DNA from: an uncultured Planctomycetales bacterium
GTDB taxonomy: Bacteria; Omnitrophota; Gorgyraeia; Zapsychrales; JAHFFX01
DNA length: 64,000 bases
Direction: 5' to 3'
NCBI GenBank assembly: GCA_964612665.1
Contig: CAZTCI010000006.1
Coordinates: forward strand, 141,750 to 205,749
The notes beneath the pieces were generated by a model. That model did not search any database. It saw only the letters and a list, made by a program, of their open reading frames with translations, and was not told the origin of the DNA. This document shows positions 5,951-40,118 of this stretch, one piece after another. The translations under genes and the position numbers were made by a program. Position 1 is the first letter of the stretch; each line of letters opens with the position of its first letter.

Positions 5951-6751
5951 ATGAGTGCTGATAAAACGATTCTTCTGATCGATGATGAAACGGATTTACA
6001 AGAGCTGGTCAAGATTACTCTGAAAACACAACAATACAATGTCATCATTGCGCGTAACGGTATCGAAGGGTTGGAAATCCTTAAAACAACGAAGCCCGAT
6101 CTTGTTATCTTGGATTTGAATATGCCCAAAATGGGCGGGCTGGAATTTTATCAGAATATTTGCGATCGCCATGACCGGCCCCGGTATCCCGTTTTAATCC
6201 TGACCGCCCGCGCGAACATGGAGCGCCTTTTCAAGCAATTTAATATTGACGGCTTTATGGCCAAGCCTTTTGAAATTGATGATCTGCTGCGCGAGGTTAA
6301 CATTATTATTGAAAGAAGATCAAACGGCAGCGTCAAGTTATTACCGTCGGGAAATAGAGAGATCAGAAAGGTGTGTATTGTTGAAAATGATCCGGAAATG
6401 CTCAGTCAAATCGGTTCTACTTTCTTAAACGCAGGTTACATCGTTAATCCAGCGCACAGCGGGACCGATGGCATAGAGCGCATCGCCAACACTATGCCAG
6501 ATGTCGCTTTAGTCAAACTAGGGTTGCTTGATATTCCGGGTGACATGGTGATTCTTAAATTAAAATACATGGCGAAAACTCAAGACATCAAATGTATTTT
6601 GTATACGGACAAGAGTGCCGAAAAGGCGGCCATTGCCCAAAAGGTTGGCATTAAAGAAGGGATTGCGCGTTTTGTTGAATTTGTTTATTCCGCTGAACTT
6701 TTAGCCGCCGCAAATGAAATAGTAAGGGAACATGAAGCGGTAAAGGCTTAG
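5951..6751 (+). CDS. Tandem-receiver protein (canonical REC followed by a second, degenerate REC-like domain)
   Basis: TILLIDDETD...LVILDLNMPKMGG...MAKPF is a canonical REC. The C-terminal half KVCIVENDPEMLSQ...VALVKLGLLDIPGDMV resembles a REC without a clear acid pocket. Confidence 0.75.
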   Translation: MSADKTILLIDDETDLQELVKITLKTQQYNVIIARNGIEGLEILKTTKPDLVILDLNMPKMGGLEFYQNICDRHDRPRYPVLILTARANMERLFKQFNIDGFMAKPFEIDDLLREVNIIIERRSNGSVKLLPSGNREIRKVCIVENDPEMLSQIGSTFLNAGYIVNPAHSGTDGIERIANTMPDVALVKLGLLDIPGDMVILKLKYMAKTQDIKCILYTDKSAEKAAIAQKVGIKEGIARFVEFVYSAELLAAANEIVREHEAVKA

Positions 6752-6774
6752 CGGTTTTAAATCTTTAACAAAAA

Positions 6775-6808
6775 AGCCATGATTGCAAATGCAGTCATGG
6801 CTTTTTTC
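6775..6808 (+). terminator. Rho-independent terminator after the two-component operon
   Basis: agccatgattgc-aaat-gcagtcatggct stem followed by a TTTTTT run. Confidence 0.6.
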
Positions 6809-7111
6809 TAGAAAAGAAACGGAAAGGTTATGCACGTGTAAAGCTTATTAGAACGTATCGCATAAATAGCCGAAGGCACGGGTTCTGTCACGGCAAACGC
6901 TTGTGGGCCCCTCCGCCCGGCGTGGATCCTCCCACAATCGGCTCACCGTGCCACCCGCTGCCCGCTCAATGCCATTTATGGGATGACTTCTACATAAGCA
7001 TCAAGGAAAAGTTTCCAAAAGTGCAGAAACCCGCGACAAAATGCTAAAAAGCCAGAAGAAAGAATGATAAGTATATTGAGCAAAAACTATTCTCATTGTT
7101 TTGTTGGTTTA

Positions 7112-15675: not shown

Positions 15676-16584
15676 ATGAGAAAAATATTTTTAACGTTTA
15701 TTGTATTGTTAACAGTTTCTGTTCAATCAAGCTGGGCGGAAAAACCACTTAATGTGGTGACAACGCAAACTCTTTTTGCCGAATTAGTCAGGCACATCGG
15801 TGGAAATAAAGTAAATGTGACTGCTATCGCTTCTCCTAAATACAATATCCATTTTATCCAACCAAAACCAAGCGATGTTCGTAAAGTTGCGCAAGCCGAT
15901 CTTTATGTAAATGGAGGATTGGATTTAGAAGCTTGGTCTGATCCACTTCTTGAAGCCGCCGGGCGGCCTGAACTTTTTAGAAATGGCCGGCGCAACGTCG
16001 ATCTTTCACAAGGTATCCGGCTGCTCAATGTTCCAGATCATCCGTTGTCCCGGGCAGAAGGGGATATCCATGCTTTTGGAAATCCACATTTTCAAATGAA
16101 TCCCGAGAATGCCAAAATTATGGTTCGGACCATTACCGAAAAGTTAAAAGAGTTTGATTCCACTAATGCCAATTATTATGAGGACAACGCCAAGACTTTC
16201 TTAAGTCAACTGGATCACAAAATCAGCGAATGGAAGAATATCTGTAATCAATGTGCGGGAAAAGAAATCATTTCCTATCACGACGAGGTCGCTTATATCA
16301 TTGATTTTTTTGGAATGAAGGACGAGCAATACCTTGAACCTAAACCAGGAATTCCACCAACGCCTAAACACTTAGAATTTTTACAAGAATATGCCAAGAC
16401 AAATCAGATCAAAGCGATTTCGGTTGCGACTTATTTCCCGAGGGATGCGGCCGAGCAATTGGCGAAACGTCTGGGTGTTAAGGTGATAACGATCGCGCAA
16501 GAACCTGGAGAAGTTTCTGGGACGGATGATATTTTTAGTTTTTTTGATTACGACATTAAACAAATTAGTGAAGGGATAAAATAA
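15676..16584 (+). CDS. znuA: Metal (Zn/Mn) ABC transporter substrate-binding protein, ZnuA/TroA family
   Basis: Signal peptide MRKIFLTFIVLLTVSVQSSWA, then NVVTTQTLFAELVRHIGGNKVNVTAIASP...HFIQPKPSD. GAGAGG RBS 7 nt upstream of this ATG. Confidence 0.8.
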   Translation: MRKIFLTFIVLLTVSVQSSWAEKPLNVVTTQTLFAELVRHIGGNKVNVTAIASPKYNIHFIQPKPSDVRKVAQADLYVNGGLDLEAWSDPLLEAAGRPELFRNGRRNVDLSQGIRLLNVPDHPLSRAEGDIHAFGNPHFQMNPENAKIMVRTITEKLKEFDSTNANYYEDNAKTFLSQLDHKISEWKNICNQCAGKEIISYHDEVAYIIDFFGMKDEQYLEPKPGIPPTPKHLEFLQEYAKTNQIKAISVATYFPRDAAEQLAKRLGVKVITIAQEPGEVSGTDDIFSFFDYDIKQISEGIK

Positions 16585-17420
16585 TGCATGAATTTTTAAA
16601 TGTCATGACACTGCCCTTTCTGGCGTGTTTGATTCTAACTGGAATTCATGCGTATTTGGGTTTTCATGTCATTGAGCGCCAGGTTATTTTTGTAGACCTG
16701 GCGCTGGCCCAAATTGCCGCATTGGGAGCCAGTTTTGCTTTGGTCTTAGGGTTCAGTTTAGAAAGTCCGTATGCGTATTGGCTATCGTTAGGATTTACCA
16801 TTTTAGGCGCAGGCATTTTTTCTTTGACGCGTTTTAAAAAACAACGCATTCCGCAAGAAGCCATTATTGGTATTACCTATGCAGTTTCGGCAGCTTTATT
16901 AATACTGGTGCTTAGCCGTTCGGGGGAAGGCGATGAACACATTCGCCAGGCGTTGGTTGGCAATATTTTGCTTGTCAGTAAGATGGACATTATCAAAATG
17001 TTTATTATTTACTCGATCATCGGCGTTGTCCATTTTATTTTTCGTAGTCAATTTCTAATGATTTCACAAAATCCGCAAGCTTGTTTTCAGAAAGGCCTGA
17101 AGGTCAGGTTTTGGGACTTTCTTTTTTACGTTTCTTTTGGTTTTGTTGTGACAAGTTCAGTGAAAATCGCTGGTGTATTGTTGGTTTTTTCTTTTCTAAT
17201 TGTCCCACCTGTATGTGCCATGCTCTTCTCTAATATACTCCATATACGCCTGATCTTGGGTTGGGCCATAGGATTTTTGGCAAGTGTGCTAGGAATGACC
17301 ATTTCTTATTATTGGGATTTCCCGACCGGCGCCAGTGTGGTATGTGTTTTTGGTCTTATTTTGACACTAATGGCATTGATGAAATTTGCTCAAAATGCAT
17401 TCGGGGCAAAAAATATTTAA
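16584..17420 (+). CDS. znuB: Metal ABC transporter permease (ZnuB/TroD family)
   Basis: Eight predicted TM helices; ATGA-type overlap with the upstream substrate-binding gene. No ATPase gene adjacent. Confidence 0.8.
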   Translation: MHEFLNVMTLPFLACLILTGIHAYLGFHVIERQVIFVDLALAQIAALGASFALVLGFSLESPYAYWLSLGFTILGAGIFSLTRFKKQRIPQEAIIGITYAVSAALLILVLSRSGEGDEHIRQALVGNILLVSKMDIIKMFIIYSIIGVVHFIFRSQFLMISQNPQACFQKGLKVRFWDFLFYVSFGFVVTSSVKIAGVLLVFSFLIVPPVCAMLFSNILHIRLILGWAIGFLASVLGMTISYYWDFPTGASVVCVFGLILTLMALMKFAQNAFGAKNI

Positions 17421-17823
17421 TTTAGACCGAGTCGATATCTATAAAAAACGTAATTACAAATACTTAGGGAATATAGACTCAAGAAACCGCTCATCTTGAA
17501 AAACGAAAATTCATGTTTTATACTTTAAGAGCGTTATAGAAAGTTTGACGCGATAAAGGCAAACCTGCCGGAAGGCAGCGACCCAGGCTTCGCTGAATTT
17601 CAGCTTCGCCTGGCCTGGCAAAGTTCCAGCACGAAAGTGTTAGAGCAGAGCCGGGGCAAAACTAAAGGGGCCAAAACCAGTTTTTGAAGGAAGGGCCAGC
17701 CAGTTGCCGCACAGCTAGAGTCTATTCATCTGCATTGTACTGCTGCATTGCACTGCGAAATTGCCACCCGCCCTGGTTTTATGCTTTCAAAAATTTGGGA
17801 TGCCTCTAAGAAAGGATCCTGTT

Positions 17824-19737
17824 ATGAAAGCTCCTCGCTTTTTCTCCCGATTCCTTTTCGAAGAAAACATTGCCCTCACGCTTATTAGTGCATTCTTTTT
17901 GCTGTGTATTTTAAATTCGTCAGCTGTGGCGGCTGATTTTTATGTGGCCACCGACGGAAATGATAGTAATGCTGGGACGCAAACGGCACCTTTTAGGACT
18001 ATTGCCAAGGGGTTAGCCGCTGCTTCAGCAGGAGACTCTGTCATTGTTAAAGATGGTACCTATGGGCCAGAGGGAAATTATACGTGCGGCACTGTGTGTA
18101 GCCAGCAAACAGACTATACCACACCTGTTTCGATTTTAAAATCTGGAACAGCGTCCGCGCCAATTACTATTAAAGCTGAGCACAAGTGGGGAGCGGTCCT
18201 GGATTGCGGTCTCCCAGACGGATATGCTGGTGATGGAACGGATGGCGTGCAAGCCTGCGATTCTAATTTTATCCTCGATGGCGATGCCTCCTATATTACG
18301 ATTCAAGATTTTGATATAACCCGAGCTTATTGGGACGGTATCCATATTAATGGCACCGGTAACCACGACATTGTTATTAAAGGTAATCATATCCATCATA
18401 TTGGTAACCGACATTATATTGTTCCATCTGGGGCTGACGTTTTTGGTATAGATGGCGTATTTGCCGGAACAAGAACAAGCAATATTACGTTTGATGGCAA
18501 TGTTTTTAACAATATCGGCCGTCTGCCAACATCAGGTCAAAGCACGACCGATTATAATCACGATCACGGCATCTACATCTATAATGGCCCCTACAGCATC
18601 ACAAATAATATTTTTTACAACAATAAAGCAGGGTGGGGCATTCAAATATCACCGGGCACCCACGACACATATATTTACAATAATACGTTTTTCGGGGCGA
18701 ACCCGAACCGCGATGGTCAAATTACGCTTTGGGCAGATAGTAGCCATCCGCACACTAATATAAAAATAGCAAATAATATCTTTTATAATCCTCGTAACTT
18801 CGCAATCACCAGTTATCAGGACACAGAAAATGACAGCCTGATTACTAACAATATCGTCTGTTGCTCCGGAGTTGATGTCGTGAACACAGGTAGTATAGGC
18901 GGTAGTCTAACTGTTACGGATAATAAAACAAATACCGACCCCAGTTTTGTTAATGTAACTGCATATGACTTCCATTTAAATTCTTCCAGTCTTGCGAAAG
19001 GTGTTGGCATTGCCACTTCACCTGAAGTCCCAACTGATCTGGATGGAAATCTTCGCTCTTTACCTCTTGATCTTGGTGCTTATGAGGTGAAAGATACCAC
19101 TCAACCCGTTACGCCGTCGCCGAGTACCACTCTTGCTGATACAACACCTCCTACCGTTTTAATTACAGTACCGGCGAGCGACACCCAGGTTTCTGGAACG
19201 ATTACAATTAGTGCCACCGCTTCTGATGATATTCGAGTCGCGGGTGTTCAGTTTAAGGTCGATGACAAACCCGTTGGTGTTGAGCTGACAGCGGAACCAT
19301 ACAATTTTAGTCTCGACACCAAGACCTTAACTAATGCGACTCATGTAGTCACGGCCGTAGCGCGTGATACATCGAATAACATTTCGGTGTCAGCTCCTGT
19401 GAATATAAGAGTACAAAATGTAACACCTATCGTAATTTTAGATAATGTTCCGCCGACAATTTCCAATGTTCAAGTCTCAAATATCACTCCTTATTCTGCC
19501 ATAATTAGCTGGATCACCAATGAATTGTCTAATTCAGCGGCAGCCTATGGAACTATCGCCACGGATAAATCAGTTGTTAATGGACTTTTGGTTACGGTTC
19601 ACTCGGTTAGTTTAACAAACTTAAAACCAAAGACAGTGTATTCTTTCCAAGTAAGCTCCCGGGATGCTAGTCAAAATACGACTACTTCTGCGGTCATGAC
19701 TTTTCAGACACGGAGATCATACTACCGTTATCGATAG
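17824..19737 (+). CDS. Secreted right-handed parallel beta-helix (pectate-lyase fold) protein with C-terminal Ig-like (Big) and fibronectin-III domains
   Basis: Signal peptide, FYVATDGNDSNAGTQTAPFRTIAKGLAAASAGDSVIVKDGTY beta-helix cap, repeated NN(I/V)F(Y/F)NN coils, Big-like segment TPPTVLITVPASDTQVSGTITISATASDDIRVAGVQFKVDD, and an FN3-like end. Confidence 0.7.
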   Translation: MKAPRFFSRFLFEENIALTLISAFFLLCILNSSAVAADFYVATDGNDSNAGTQTAPFRTIAKGLAAASAGDSVIVKDGTYGPEGNYTCGTVCSQQTDYTTPVSILKSGTASAPITIKAEHKWGAVLDCGLPDGYAGDGTDGVQACDSNFILDGDASYITIQDFDITRAYWDGIHINGTGNHDIVIKGNHIHHIGNRHYIVPSGADVFGIDGVFAGTRTSNITFDGNVFNNIGRLPTSGQSTTDYNHDHGIYIYNGPYSITNNIFYNNKAGWGIQISPGTHDTYIYNNTFFGANPNRDGQITLWADSSHPHTNIKIANNIFYNPRNFAITSYQDTENDSLITNNIVCCSGVDVVNTGSIGGSLTVTDNKTNTDPSFVNVTAYDFHLNSSSLAKGVGIATSPEVPTDLDGNLRSLPLDLGAYEVKDTTQPVTPSPSTTLADTTPPTVLITVPASDTQVSGTITISATASDDIRVAGVQFKVDDKPVGVELTAEPYNFSLDTKTLTNATHVVTAVARDTSNNISVSAPVNIRVQNVTPIVILDNVPPTISNVQVSNITPYSAIISWITNELSNSAAAYGTIATDKSVVNGLLVTVHSVSLTNLKPKTVYSFQVSSRDASQNTTTSAVMTFQTRRSYYRYR

Positions 19738-19771
19738 TAATACGTTTATATACATAATACCAGTTTGTTTA

Positions 19772-19807
19772 GCCGCCGCGAATCCCAATCTCGCGGCGGT
19801 TTTTTTA
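19772..19807 (+). terminator. Rho-independent terminator
   Basis: gccgccgcga / tcgcggcgg 9-bp GC stem with a 9-nt loop, followed by TTTTTTT. Confidence 0.65.
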
Positions 19808-19989
19808 GTATCATTTTTTTAAAGAGAATTTTTCTGCACGGCTTTTCAATTTATCAGTGAGAAAAATACCTTTCTAATAAAAATTTTTTGAGGGCATAGC
19901 CTTAATTTTTTTGCTTTCGATAAAATAATATGTTAAAATTCTCGAGTCTTTGGATGGCAAGGGAAAGTGACTAAGCAAGGGAAAACTGT

Positions 19990-22241: not shown

Positions 22242-25200
22242 ATGCCTGATTTACATCCATCTGCACATGATCTTATCGAAATTGATTTTCAGGAAATCCC
22301 TAGAAAATTAGTAAAACACCGCAAAAAGATTATTTCAATTGTGGCCACGTGTGTGGTCTTGGCGGCGATCTTTTCTTTTAAGCAGACGCCAATCTACCGC
22401 GCGACGAGCCGAATCATGGTAGACAGTCAACCACCAAAGATTGTGAAGGTGGAAGAAGTTGTCCTGCCCGATTTTGCCGATCGCCCCAATTTTTTTAATT
22501 CCCAAATCGAAATCCTAAAAAGTCATACTTTGGCTGAGTTGGTTTTTCAAGATCTGGGCGGCTATGAGCCTTTAGATCGACGGGGAAAACCCGCAAACAA
22601 ACTTAAACCCATTACAACAGATGAGCGCATTGAGGCCCTCTTAAAACAAGTTAAGATTGCTCCAGTAAGAATGACGCAAATCATTGCTGTCAGTGTCGAA
22701 GACCCAGATCCGAAATTGGCGGCCAGCATTGCCAATAAATGGAGCCAGGCTTATGTGTTTTTTTCATCAGTTGATCAATTAATTCAACGACGCAGTGAAT
22801 TAGAATCGGATCTTAGTCAGCAATTAAAATTTTTGAAGAAGATGCATCCAGTTATTTTAGGGTTACAGAATCAAATCCAGATACTTAATGAAAAAATTGA
22901 CAACGAACGCAAGCGTTTGAGCAAGCAAGAAAATGTTTCGTATAATTCAATGTCATCCAGCGAAATTACGAACGTCAAAATTTTAGACCGCGCTCAAATT
23001 CCACTTAAACCTGTACGGCCTCAAAAAGCGCTCAATATTCTGTTGGGACTTATTTTTGGCGGATTCTTTGGTTTTGCCCTGGTGTTTTTATTGGAATCGT
23101 TCGATCAAACTTTCAAGACAGCCTCTGAGATCGAAAAGGTTCTCAAGATTTCTTGTCTAGCCTCTATTCCTTTAAAGAATGATAACTTTCCGGCGGAACA
23201 TGTTTCATCGAGGATTCGGGATTCCGGTTTCGCTGAATCGTTCCGGGGTTTAAGAACACGCATTATCTTTAGCGAACCTAACCTTTCGAAAAGGACATTT
23301 GTTGTGACGAGTGCTTCTCCGGGTGAAGGTAAAACTAGTGTGGCGGTCAATCTGGCCACGGTTTTCGCTCAAGCCAATGAACGCGTCTTACTTGTCGATG
23401 CCGACATGCGAAATCCAAGGGTGCATAAAGTTTTTAAAATGAAACGGTCAAAAGGAATCGCCGACATTCTGGCGAATCATAAAGAAGATATAGAATCGTT
23501 CATTCATGAAACTGATATCCCAGGATTAGAAATTTTAACCTGCGGAGAAGTGCTGTCGAATCCTTCTGAACTCCTTAGTTCGAAAAGGCTGAAAGATTTC
23601 ATAAACATATTATTGACAAGATATGACCGCATCATTTTCGATACACCACCGGTATTGGCAGCCACTGACGCGGTCGTTCTCGCGACCCGGGTAGACACAA
23701 CAATTTTAGTGATCAGCTCGGACATTACAACCCGTCAAGCGGCTATACGCTCTAAAGAGGCACTAACCTCTGTGCATGCGCCGATTTTAGGCGCTGTTTT
23801 TAATATGGTGAAGATGGATATGCACGGATACGATGCTTACAATTATTTTTATGAAGCTAATCTTCAAAAACAGACGGAGAAGAAACGGTTTACAGTTATT
23901 AAGGAAGGGACGTCTTTTATTCTTTTTCTGGCCGCTATGATGGCCGCCCCCTTGATGTACGGTTCTGTACATATGACTTCTCAACTAATCGTATCGCTTC
24001 TGGCTTTGCTGAGTTTTTATTTTATCCTCATGGCCAGGCCAAAGGCATTAAAGTCCGTGATGAATTCTTTTTTAACAATGTTAGGAATAGGTTTATTTAC
24101 TTTTGCGCTTTGTCAATTGATACCAATTCCATTAAATATAATTAAATTTCTCTCGCCGGCAGCCCATGATATTTACAATCGGTATTTGCCGGGAGGAGTT
24201 CAATCTAAACAATTAGTAACATTCTCTCTTTATCCTTCAGACACGTTGCGTGGCATTCTTCAATTTGTGCTTTACGCGTTGGTCTATATCATCACAAGAT
24301 TGTTTCTTTGGACAGATGAGAAAGATTTTCCATCAGTTCGTACCAAAATTCTCGAGCAAGCAAGATATTTAAAACTAAGCTGTTTGATCGGCGTTTTGTC
24401 GCTTCTTTTTCACAGCCTTTATGATTTCAACCTTCACATTCCTGCTAACGGAATGTTTTTTATGTTTCTGTTGGCCATTGCAACCGGAGGTCCAACGGAA
24501 AATTATGACCATGTCTTTTTCCGGCGGGCTGTGCATTTTATTGTCTTTTTTGGTTTTTCAATGGCTGTATTTGCCATTGTGCAGAGTTGGCTGTTTAACG
24601 GACACATATTTTGGGTCGGCATGCCGGCGCCCCACCCGGTAGGATCGTATTACAATTATGATCACTTCGCCGGTTTCATGGAACTGTGCAGCGCGGTCGC
24701 CGTTGGCATGTTCTTTGCGTCTTTTCTCTATATATCGTTTCCATCGAAGCGGAATAAAAATAAGATAAGTTGGCGGAACGCTCGGGAGCTTTATGTTTTT
24801 CTCGGATATTTATTAATGGCTTCCGTCATGATTTCGACGATTTTTCTCTCCACATCCCGCGGCGGCATCATGAGTTTTCTTTTAAGTCAGATTATTTTTC
24901 TTTTTTTGATATTTATAGCGGAAGGGGAAGCCAGTCGAAGGGCAAAGACCATAACGGCTATTGCAACGGTCATAGCGTTGAGCGCAGTGATTGTGGTTTG
25001 GCTGGGGCCCCAGGCCTTTTTGGAACGGTTTCATCTTTTATCTATACAAAACATTGTAAAAATGGAAGGACCTATTAATCCACGGTTAGCTTTTTATCAT
25101 GATACTCTGCGGGTTATTAAGGATTTTCCGATTTTTGGAAGCGGGTTGAACACTTTTGCCACGAACTTCACGCATTACCGTACATTTGATTACACGCCTA

Positions 25201-25334
25201 ATTTTTTGCGCTATACCCATAATGATTATCTTCAACTTGTTTCCGAAACCGGATTGGCAGGCATGATTTTTCTTTTTGCCTTTTTATTTTACTTCGTTTC
25301 ATGCACTCGCCGAGTGGTTAGAGAAATAAAATGA
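22242..25334 (+). CDS. Fusion protein: Wzz/GumC-type chain-length determinant + BY-kinase (Wzc-like, with C-terminal Tyr cluster) fused to a Wzy/O-antigen-ligase-like polytopic membrane domain
   Basis: Single uninterrupted 1030-codon ORF. Residues 1-540 have the Wzz TM helix, coiled region, second TM helix, Walker A SPGEGKTS, A' VDADMRNP, B IIFDTPPV and a Tyr cluster YDAYNYFYE. Residues about 560-1030 have about 10 TM helices and Wzy_C motifs TSRGG and HNDYLQLVSETGLAGM. Confidence 0.8.
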   Translation: MPDLHPSAHDLIEIDFQEIPRKLVKHRKKIISIVATCVVLAAIFSFKQTPIYRATSRIMVDSQPPKIVKVEEVVLPDFADRPNFFNSQIEILKSHTLAELVFQDLGGYEPLDRRGKPANKLKPITTDERIEALLKQVKIAPVRMTQIIAVSVEDPDPKLAASIANKWSQAYVFFSSVDQLIQRRSELESDLSQQLKFLKKMHPVILGLQNQIQILNEKIDNERKRLSKQENVSYNSMSSSEITNVKILDRAQIPLKPVRPQKALNILLGLIFGGFFGFALVFLLESFDQTFKTASEIEKVLKISCLASIPLKNDNFPAEHVSSRIRDSGFAESFRGLRTRIIFSEPNLSKRTFVVTSASPGEGKTSVAVNLATVFAQANERVLLVDADMRNPRVHKVFKMKRSKGIADILANHKEDIESFIHETDIPGLEILTCGEVLSNPSELLSSKRLKDFINILLTRYDRIIFDTPPVLAATDAVVLATRVDTTILVISSDITTRQAAIRSKEALTSVHAPILGAVFNMVKMDMHGYDAYNYFYEANLQKQTEKKRFTVIKEGTSFILFLAAMMAAPLMYGSVHMTSQLIVSLLALLSFYFILMARPKALKSVMNSFLTMLGIGLFTFALCQLIPIPLNIIKFLSPAAHDIYNRYLPGGVQSKQLVTFSLYPSDTLRGILQFVLYALVYIITRLFLWTDEKDFPSVRTKILEQARYLKLSCLIGVLSLLFHSLYDFNLHIPANGMFFMFLLAIATGGPTENYDHVFFRRAVHFIVFFGFSMAVFAIVQSWLFNGHIFWVGMPAPHPVGSYYNYDHFAGFMELCSAVAVGMFFASFLYISFPSKRNKNKISWRNARELYVFLGYLLMASVMISTIFLSTSRGGIMSFLLSQIIFLFLIFIAEGEASRRAKTITAIATVIALSAVIVVWLGPQAFLERFHLLSIQNIVKMEGPINPRLAFYHDTLRVIKDFPIFGSGLNTFATNFTHYRTFDYTPNFLRYTHNDYLQLVSETGLAGMIFLFAFLFYFVSCTRRVVREIK

Positions 25335-39099: not shown

Positions 39100-39453
39100 A
39101 TGTTAGAGTACATCGCAATTATATTTGCCTTTCTATTTGCCTTAGGGATTGCGGCGTTTTTGTTGACGTTGCCTAAATTGCTGAGTCCCAAACGTCCTAG
39201 CGAGGCCAAATCTAAAATATTCGAATGCGGAAAAGAACCGCTGTCCTTGCCGCGTGGGCAGATTCCTGTTCATTTTTATATTGTCGCCATGCTTTTTATT
39301 GTATTTGACGTCGAGATGGTCTTTCTTTTTCCCTGGGCGGTGACGTTCCGAGATATGGGCGTTTTTGGATTGGTTGAGATGGCGATTTTTTTGGGCTTTG
39401 TAATTTTGGGATATGCTTACGCCTGGAAAAAAGGGGCGTTAGAGTGTGAGTAG
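39100..39453 (+). CDS. nuoA: NADH-quinone oxidoreductase subunit A
   Basis: Three-TM protein with FECGKEP...FDVEMVFLFPWA signature. Confidence 0.9.
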   Translation: MLEYIAIIFAFLFALGIAAFLLTLPKLLSPKRPSEAKSKIFECGKEPLSLPRGQIPVHFYIVAMLFIVFDVEMVFLFPWAVTFRDMGVFGLVEMAIFLGFVILGYAYAWKKGALECE

Positions 39454-39457
39454 TTTA

Positions 39458-39536
39458 AACGCGAATACTCGCGAATTGCACACCAATTAACGCGAATTCG
39501 CGAGATTCGAGTGTAATTCGCGAGTATTCGCGTTTA
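39458..39536. repeat. Intercistronic perfect 21-bp inverted repeat (nuoA-nuoB) enclosing the self-complementary dodecamer CGCGAATTCGCG
   Basis: aaacgcgaatactcgcgaatt at 39458-39478 is the exact reverse complement of aattcgcgagtattcgcgttt at 39516-39536; cgcgaattcgcg lies at 39491-39502. Confidence 0.8.
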
Positions 39537-39554
39537 AAAAAAAAGGAACTAACA

Positions 39555-40118
39555 ATGTCCTTCATGAGTTCAGCCACAAATTTTTTCACATCCAAAATGA
39601 ACGACGCGCTGGGCTGGGCGCGCAAATATTCTATTTTTCAATATCCTTTCGTAACGGCGTGCTGCGGCATGGAATATATGTCAACCGCGGCCGGTCATTA
39701 TGATGTCGACCGTTTCGGCGCCGGCTTCCCCCGTTTTTCCCCTAGGCAATCCGATGTCCTTTTTGTCGTCGGAACAATCAGCCATAAAATGGCACCCGTC
39801 CTTAAAACTGTTTATGACCAAATGTGTGAACCGAAATGGGTTGTCGCTTTCGGCGTCTGTACTTGTACCGGCGGATTTTATGATAATTACGCGACGGTAA
39901 TGGGCATCGATACGATTATTCCCGTTGATATTTATATTCCCGGCTGTCCGCCCCGTCCGGAAAATGTTTTGGATGGTCTTATGAAGCTTCAAAATAAAAT
40001 TCAGCGTGGGGAACAATCCCGGACGCTTTATGATCCCCGGACAAAAATTGGCAGGCCTGCCGAATTACAGCAAGGTTATTCCGTCCAGCAGCACATAAAA
40101 CATATAGAATCCACATGA
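39555..40118 (+). CDS. nuoB: NADH-quinone oxidoreductase subunit B
   Basis: CCGMEYM, GVCTCTGG, PGCPP cluster N2 ligands. Confidence 0.9.
   Translation: MSFMSSATNFFTSKMNDALGWARKYSIFQYPFVTACCGMEYMSTAAGHYDVDRFGAGFPRFSPRQSDVLFVVGTISHKMAPVLKTVYDQMCEPKWVVAFGVCTCTGGFYDNYATVMGIDTIIPVDIYIPGCPPRPENVLDGLMKLQNKIQRGEQSRTLYDPRTKIGRPAELQQGYSVQQHIKHIEST

Follow-up and report, generated by a model that had tools for sequence, protein, structure and literature searches.

The gene that begins at 17824 in the 64,000-nucleotide stretch of Omnitrophota DNA analysed here (the window) is preceded by a leader for which a c-di-GMP-I (GEMM-I) riboswitch core had been proposed, and the question raised by this locus is whether the leader really holds such an aptamer and, if so, whether the aptamer could still work. 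A ZnuB-type ABC permease gene (16584-17420) precedes the leader, and from its end to the ATG of this 637-codon gene there are 403 nt (17421-17823), not the 360 bp given in the original prediction. The source genome has a G+C content of about 42%, and its assignment to Omnitrophota agrees with NuoF of the window, which shares 78-89% identity with proteins of 'Candidatus Omnitrophica bacterium'. The identical leader sequence was found in two independent public assemblies, and it is therefore no assembly artefact. All the motifs from which the riboswitch had been read are present where they had been placed: GGCAAACC-TGCC-GGAA-GGCA-GCGAC at 17558-17582, an interrupted hairpin CCAGGCTTCGCTGA-ATT-TCAGCTTCGCCTGG at 17583-17613, a second pair formed by GGGGCAAAAC (17653-62) and GGGCCAAAAC (17668-77), which is direct repeat D4, and tandem 13-mers at 17730-17742 and 17743-17755 (direct repeat D2), 69-94 nt 5' of the ATG at 17824.

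When the whole window was scanned with Rfam at gathering thresholds, no matches were obtained. RF01051 (c-di-GMP-I), one of the two families against which the original prediction was to be checked, is nevertheless matched from end to end (model positions 1-87 of 87) by 17548-17711, with 30.4 bits where gathering requires 35 and with an E-value of 4e-4 for the 501-nt region searched and of 0.053 for the whole window. In the Infernal alignment the first hairpin has to accommodate 81 nt in its loop, and the score stays just under the Rfam threshold because a pair of hairpins, together 73 nt long, is inserted beside the ligand pocket. We also used a covariance model, R2, built from three compact aptamers alone (L011, L020 and L002, see below), with the window sequence left out. 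R2 gave a single match in the 64-kb window, at 17631-17715, with 39.8 bits and an E-value of about 1e-9. Local alignments with R1 and R2, in which the 3' strand of the second inserted hairpin (17637-46) serves as a replacement 5' half, were discarded as a local-end artefact, there being no G20 and no P1b hairpin in that segment.

Among full-length homologs of the downstream protein, the closest is P0001, which is 53% identical and is encoded at locus L011 (NCBI GCA_016307145.1, contig JADMIO011019993.1), whose orthology is based on a BBP2_2 porin with 59% identity, a homologous small ORF and an adjacent Poly_export gene. Immediately 5' of this homolog lies a compact GEMM-I aptamer (L011:2820-2907), which scores 56.1 bits with RF03167 and 94 bits with model R1. 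The window sequence corresponds to an aptamer of the L011 type plus 73 extra nucleotides (17583-17655) between '...GGCAG-C-GAC' and 'GC-AAAA...', and, once these are removed in silico, it is colinear with L011, with the metagenomic relative L020 and with the Scalindua GEMM-I aptamer L002. The aptamers of the window and L011 are identical at 68 of 89 positions (76%), whereas identity in the flanking leader is 0.50, against a shuffled background of 0.49 +/- 0.02. On the alignment of these four sequences (the window without 17583-17655, L011, L020 and L002), the GEMM-I structure leaves 89.9% of the cells paired, with two-sided changes in 9 pairs, and neither value was reached by any of 500 shuffles; these covariation figures come from four sequences only, with the structure drawn on that of the window. 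All three pairs of P1a show two-sided changes among the four.

That the leader is unrelated to GEMM-I and resembles it by chance is extremely improbable. The Rfam score below gathering and a whole-window E-value of merely 0.053 would fit such a coincidence, but it is ruled out by the single match of the independent model R2, by the compact aptamer at the same position in the ortholog and by the colinear alignment with 76% identity. As judged from these alignments, the leader holds a true homolog of the c-di-GMP-I aptamer, and to this extent the earlier call was right; its architecture had been misread.

Both other sequences used in the alignment were noted for features of their own. L020:7984-8074, on a metagenome contig, is a compact GEMM-I aptamer with 44.6 bits, above gathering; it has A instead of G20 (AGCACAC, not GGCAAAC) and GCC in place of GAC, a signature that recalls the cGAMP-sensing GEMM-Ib variants, and a membrane-protein-like ORF comes next. 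L002:6772-6861, on the minus strand of a Candidatus Scalindua sequence, is a canonical c-di-GMP-I aptamer with 66.2 bits; a distant homolog of the beta-helix gene (30%) lies some 2.6 kb away on the opposite strand.

The positions of all the features are collected in Table 1, with the nucleotides of the aptamer core numbered as in Vibrio Vc2 via alignment to the Rfam consensus.

Table 1. Features of the interrupted aptamer, its leader and the gene downstream (window coordinates, Vc2 numbering for core nucleotides).
Feature	Position	Strand	Details
Promoter-like TTGAAA-17 nt-TATACT	17496..17524	+	10/12 consensus matches; sole such site in 17300-17950; consensus match, predicted start near 17531
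Whole interrupted c-di-GMP-I aptamer	17548..17711	+	RF01051; colinear with three compact aptamers once 17583-17655 removed
P1a 5' strand GCG	17550..17552	+	pairs with CGC 17708-17710
GGCAAA: G20 = 17558; G21, C22 = 17559-60 (2-bp stem); AAA 17561-63 = 5' side of internal loop	17558..17563	+	alignments
Upper P1b hairpin CUGCC-GGAA-GGCAG, GNRA tetraloop 17570-73	17564..17579	+	-8.3 kcal/mol, z = -2.9
GAC, 3' side of internal loop; C44 = 17582	17580..17582	+	alignment
Insert hairpin A: 6 bp, UUC/UUC internal loop, 5 bp, AUU loop	17583..17613	+	-16.3 kcal/mol, z = -4.7
Insert hairpin B: 6 bp, AAA/AGA internal loop, 4+5 bp (one mismatch), GAAA tetraloop	17614..17655	+	-19.9 kcal/mol, z = -5.3
G45, C46 = 17656-57 (pair with C22, G21), then A-linker	17656..17661	+	alignments, models
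Second arm (P2 of Vc2): AACU/AGUU, GG/CC, GGC/GCC; A82-G83 bulge 17698-99	17660..17705	+	alignments
C92 = 17707, then P1a 3' strand CGC 17708-10	17707..17710	+	alignments
Tandem 13-mers CTGCATTGTACTG and CTGCATTGCACTG	17730..17755	+	direct repeat D2; weak hairpin possible
Candidate switching strand	17773..17807	+	alternative pairings in constrained and unconstrained folds
RBS GAAAGGA 17810-16; start ATG 17824-26	17810..17826	+	gene called from 17824 in public assemblies
Secreted 637-aa protein: right-handed beta-helix, Big_7, fn3	17824..19737	+	domain assignment, AlphaFold
Intrinsic terminator, 11-bp G+C-rich stem, then U7	19771..19808	+	-20.2 kcal/mol, z = -4.85

On its 5' side the insert is bordered by the GAC of the internal loop and on its 3' side by GC-AAA, which places it between C44 and G45. 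What had been called the core is merely the 5' half of a split aptamer, the GC-AAA and the second arm of which follow beyond the 73 nt. The CCAGGC after GAC had been taken, wrongly, for a degenerate counterpart of GCAAAGC; the true GC-AAA is that of the supposedly second GGGGCAAAAC, 73 nt downstream, and the alignment of GCGACCCAGGC to GGGACGCAAAGC was rejected, the comparison with the ortholog placing GC-AAA at 17656-60. The long interrupted hairpin belongs to the insert and is no GEMM helix. This hairpin, A, is a near-perfect 31-nt palindrome that is unique within the window, absent from L011, L020 and L002, and without a further copy in the fetched loci. Hairpin B abuts hairpin A on one side and G45 on the other with zero linker nucleotides, and its layout, GGC-AAA-stem-GNRA-AGA-GCC, is like that of the P1b arm, which hints at a partial duplication, on sequence evidence that is thin. 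The whole insert folds at -36.8 kcal/mol (z = -4.76), and it is to the insert alone that the description of the leader as highly structured applies, whereas the leader as a whole (291 nt) has a z of -0.39. When the GEMM core helices alone were enforced, the rest folded into P1b, A and B with -58.3 kcal/mol; the unconstrained minimum of the isolated aptamer is -63.9 kcal/mol. Since the hairpins abut without linkers, the 2-bp stem G21-C46/C22-G45 can close around them, and the AAA/GAC internal loop would be turned into a four-way junction, with the insert leaving the backbone directly 3' of C44.

Other arrangements were considered and rejected. The placement chosen by Infernal, with the insert in the P1b loop and a long-range stem 17564-68/17650-54, reaches -45.2 kcal/mol versus -58.3 kcal/mol and is not colinear with L011. 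Hairpin B as a full alternative 5' half has no C44 equivalent, and the linker would shift by 6 nt.

The near-perfect palindrome of hairpin A leads to the idea that something palindromic, either a small mobile or repeat element or a site bound by protein at the DNA or RNA level, landed in the leader as the insert and has no riboswitch role, and the genome does contain at least one other long perfect intergenic palindrome (39454-39538). Neither whole nor partial further copies of the insert were found in the 64-kb window or the fetched loci, no target-site duplication or terminal inverted repeats were seen by eye at its boundaries, and hairpin B resembles the aptamer's own P1b arm rather than a foreign element, all of which makes this origin unlikely; it would in any case be compatible with either a functional switch or a relic. 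At 39454-39538, an inverted repeat of about 28 perfect base pairs gives a hairpin of 85 nt (-52.7 kcal/mol, z = -9.7), and an A-run comes next. This palindrome stands between ORF 39100-39453 and ORF 39555-40118, 5' of the nuo genes, gives sub-threshold Rfam 'microRNA' matches on both strands, and may serve as a bidirectional terminator or else belong to a palindromic repeat family.

In the aptamer core, five nucleotides (AUAAA) separate the 5' strand of P1a from G20, which we take to be the same count as from G14 to G20 in Vc2. In the Vc2 structures, A47 stacks between both guanines of the ligand. G20 contacts one of these guanines and C92 forms a Watson-Crick pair with the other, while the long-range pair C44-G83 is needed for folding (PMC11705072). 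Aligned with L011 and with the Rfam consensus, the window sequence has all the ligand-contacting nucleotides, as G 17558, A 17658 and C 17707, and keeps those of the C44-G83 pair as C 17582 and G 17699. The 2-bp stem consists of G21-C46 (17559/17657) and C22-G45 (17560/17656), directly 3' of which the linker AAAA (17658-61) begins with A47; the AAA linker between the arms is nearly invariant in the family, with two exceptions in 322 (PMC1950547). The first hairpin, the most conserved one of the family (PMC1950547), has all of its parts (GC/GC, AAA/GAC, 5 bp plus a C.C mismatch, GGAA), yet it is non-contiguous, because the 3' strand of the 2-bp stem is parted from GAC by the 73 nt. The mismatch, at the basal pair of P1b (17564/17579), occurs in the window only, the other three aptamers having C-G, and the second arm lacks the canonical 11-nt tetraloop receptor. 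As expected for a 5'-UTR element, the aptamer stands between a promoter-like site and the ATG of a lyase-like protein bearing a signal peptide, and its ortholog is placed alike. In sequence terms, then, every nucleotide feature examined is there, what is formally missing being a score above the Rfam threshold and a contiguous first hairpin; the departures of the core amount to the insert and the C.C mismatch alone, with the pocket and tertiary-contact nucleotides conserved.

These same departures could mean that a recent 73-nt insertion broke a compact riboswitch, the core of which has not yet decayed, and that the gene is now without c-di-GMP control or controlled by something else in the leader. 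Such a disabled relic would fit an insert that separates C44 from G45 within the family's best-conserved hairpin and adjoins a residue whose contact with G83 is essential in Vc2 (PMC11705072), as well as a mismatch at the P1b base that is unique to the window, a sub-threshold Rfam match, an insert that is a singleton with no comparative support, and the weak statistics of the expression platform described below. It fits less well with the intact ligand- and tertiary-contact nucleotides, P1a spacing and second arm, or with an aptamer that alone is conserved, the rest of the leader being at background identity. The insert itself, composed of two exactly closed hairpins without linkers, one of them capped by GAAA, has the geometry expected if closure of the junction was preserved. 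We regard loss of function as the main alternative to a working switch, though as the less likely of the two.

Comparative evidence was sought in several ways. A metagenome scan for insert-bearing aptamers with a pattern of the 3' half returned one real relative, which is compact, plus three chance matches in coding regions, and a scan of viral contigs for AAGGCAAAC-N50-80-GACGCAAAGC gave 47 coding-like matches, none with covariance-model support. No close protein relative was found in a scan of genome contigs, the best being that of Scalindua with 32% identity, and no GEMM element was detected in nine other homolog leaders (eight by Rfam scan, L027 by model R1 and by eye). A literature search for GEMM-I with inserted helices, or for GEMM-I in Omnitrophota, yielded nothing relevant. 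A second insert-bearing example, which might have spoken for selection on the insert, was not found in these searches. We consider it improbable that the insert is a functional peripheral domain and the RNA an undescribed four-way-junction form of the c-di-GMP-I aptamer. If it were, hairpin B, P1b-like and capped by GAAA, and the symmetric UUC/UUC hairpin A might tune folding, affinity or kinetics or, alternatively, bind a second factor beside the pocket.

A transcript from the promoter-like site is predicted to start at about 17531, some 19 nt 5' of P1a. As no terminator-like site was found on the + strand within the leader, transcription termination was discarded as the mechanism, and the folds of the leader point instead to a candidate platform acting on translation. 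Folding of 17532-17850 without constraints left the AUG open and paired 17773-17807 with the second arm, at its 5' strand and loop (17666-17699). When the aptamer helices were imposed, 17783-17805 paired with 17813-17831, masking AGGA and the AUG, and the probability of the AUG being unpaired fell from 0.84 to 0.36. The pairing statistics of the anti-aptamer duplex are no better than those of shuffles (z = -0.9), those of the sequestering hairpin are modest (z = -2.3), and the same modelling in L011 gave no change in RBS accessibility. Within the full leader, adopting the aptamer fold takes about 12 kcal/mol in secondary-structure energy, a cost that c-di-GMP binding plus tertiary contacts may, in our judgement, be able to cover.

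The tandem 13-mers between aptamer and platform showed no enrichment elsewhere in the window. An 11-mer inside them, ATTGTACTGCT (17734-17744), is common to the region 3' of the window aptamer and to L011:2798-2808, where it is found in a 9-bp hairpin just 5' of the aptamer. By a rough estimate, two regions of about 400 nt would share such an 11-mer by chance with a probability of about 0.04-0.08, and the 11-mer may be a common protein-binding site.

The nature of the regulated gene was revised in part. The product is indeed a secreted beta-helix protein with a signal-peptide-like N-terminus, as had been proposed, but it is probably no adhesin. Its AlphaFold model (pLDDT 79.8, above 90 over most of the beta-helix) matches the PL9 pectate lyase Pel9A and rhamnogalacturonan lyases, PL6 alginate lyases, chondroitinase B and RbmB of V. 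cholerae, a biofilm-matrix lyase, and many homologs adjoin heparinase II/III-like and UDP-glucose dehydrogenase genes. Because of these matches and neighbours, an enzyme that cleaves or processes polysaccharides appears more likely than an adhesin. In the metagenome loci L013, L015, L025 and L026, heparinase II/III-like genes stand repeatedly alongside the beta-helix homolog, which in the last three also adjoins a UDP-glucose dehydrogenase gene; no GEMM element was found 5' of the homologs in these four loci.

EPS export and synthesis genes follow 3' of the lyase-like gene (BBP2_2 porin, Poly_export/SLBB, a Wzz-GNVR-kinase-Wzy_C fusion, a flippase and glycosyltransferases), and they had been thought to be under the riboswitch as well. 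This does not agree with the strong terminator that intervenes at 19771-19808, which had escaped the consensus scan because its loop is 9 nt long, nor with L011, where the lyase-like gene is inverted relative to the EPS export genes. Given the terminator and the inversion, the riboswitch most likely controls this single gene, and the downstream EPS genes are probably not co-regulated. The fusion is encoded by a single ORF of 1030 aa (22242-25334), in which Wzz/GNVR chain-length-determinant and P-loop tyrosine-kinase-like domains are joined to a C-terminal Wzy_C, an O-antigen ligase/polymerase-like membrane domain; we know of no other polypeptide that combines Wzz/GNVR, kinase-like and Wzy_C domains. 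Elsewhere in the window, sub-threshold Rfam matches of the small-RNA or terminator-like kind were obtained on both strands of 6769-6819, just after a response-regulator gene (5951-6751), and this site is probably a bidirectional terminator hairpin.

Taken together, we favour a c-di-GMP switch that still functions and carries an expansion domain, and put the probability of this reading at roughly 0.55. A transcript from the promoter near 17496-17524 would carry the interrupted aptamer, in which two self-contained hairpins were gained between C44 and G45 and the pocket nucleotides would stay in place, and the RNA would probably still bind c-di-GMP. Binding would stabilise the second arm and free 17783-17805, and the freed strand would pair with the RBS and AUG, lowering translation. 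This direction, an OFF switch, is proposed only tentatively on the basis of the modelled folds and may well turn out to be wrong; repression at high c-di-GMP would make biological sense, since the product is lyase-like.

If the interrupted aptamer does bind c-di-GMP, the backbone between C44 and G45 tolerates a large extra domain beside a tertiary pair that is essential for folding, which bears on how far riboswitch cores can be expanded and on the engineering of GEMM-I-based sensors. It would also mean that threshold-based annotation overlooks real riboswitches with internal insertions, and that c-di-GMP controls an enzyme resembling matrix-polysaccharide lyases in Omnitrophota, a phylum that, to our knowledge, has had no member in pure culture so far. 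Were the aptamer dead, the locus would offer a snapshot of riboswitch loss. The riboswitch family itself is well known, and what is new is the insertion variant alone, of which this is the one sequence.

With regard to known systems, nothing points to a variant of changed ligand or class, since G20 and A47 are canonical. A20 defines the GEMM-Ib class, which senses 3',3'-cGAMP, whereas the window has G at 17558. G47 is the defining feature of the c-di-GMP-I-GGC variant, RF03167. This family is the best model for L011 (56.1 bits, gathering 59) and shares with it a short second arm that lacks the receptor, but its consensus linker is GCGAA where L011 and the window have GCAAA, which suggests, as far as the alignment goes, that they carry the canonical A47 and stand outside the GGC variant. 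Surplus GGCAAA segments, at 17558, 17617 and 17655, recall tandem c-di-GMP-I riboswitches such as those of Bacillus thuringiensis (Bc3-5, PMC4759541). Unlike these, the window has one complete aptamer only, and the arrangement is not a tandem one, because hairpin B has neither its own second arm nor counterparts of G20 and C44.

The nearest counterpart is the L011 aptamer, which has the second arm 'GGGGCC...AGGAAGG..GCCAGCCAGUU' in common with the window and precedes the same gene family next to the same EPS export genes. It differs in having no insert, a GACAA pentaloop instead of GGAA and an intact C-G at the base of the stem, and its gene is divergent from the export genes, whereas that of the window is co-directional with them. 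Compared with Vc2 of Vibrio cholerae (c-di-GMP-I, RF01051), the window departs by the 73-nt two-hairpin insert between C44 and G45, predicted to create a four-way junction, by the C.C mismatch at the base of the 6-bp stem and by a second arm without the canonical 11-nt tetraloop receptor. In all else the order of elements is that of Vc2: P1a, G20, the 2-bp stem, the AAA/GAC loop and the GNRA-capped stem are followed by the AAA linker, the second arm with its A82-G83 bulge, C92 and the 3' strand of P1a. At the positions aligned to G20, A47, C92 and the C44-G83 pair the window has the same nucleotides as Vc2, and, like other c-di-GMP-I riboswitches, the aptamer of the window stands in the 5' UTR before a gene of extracellular function.
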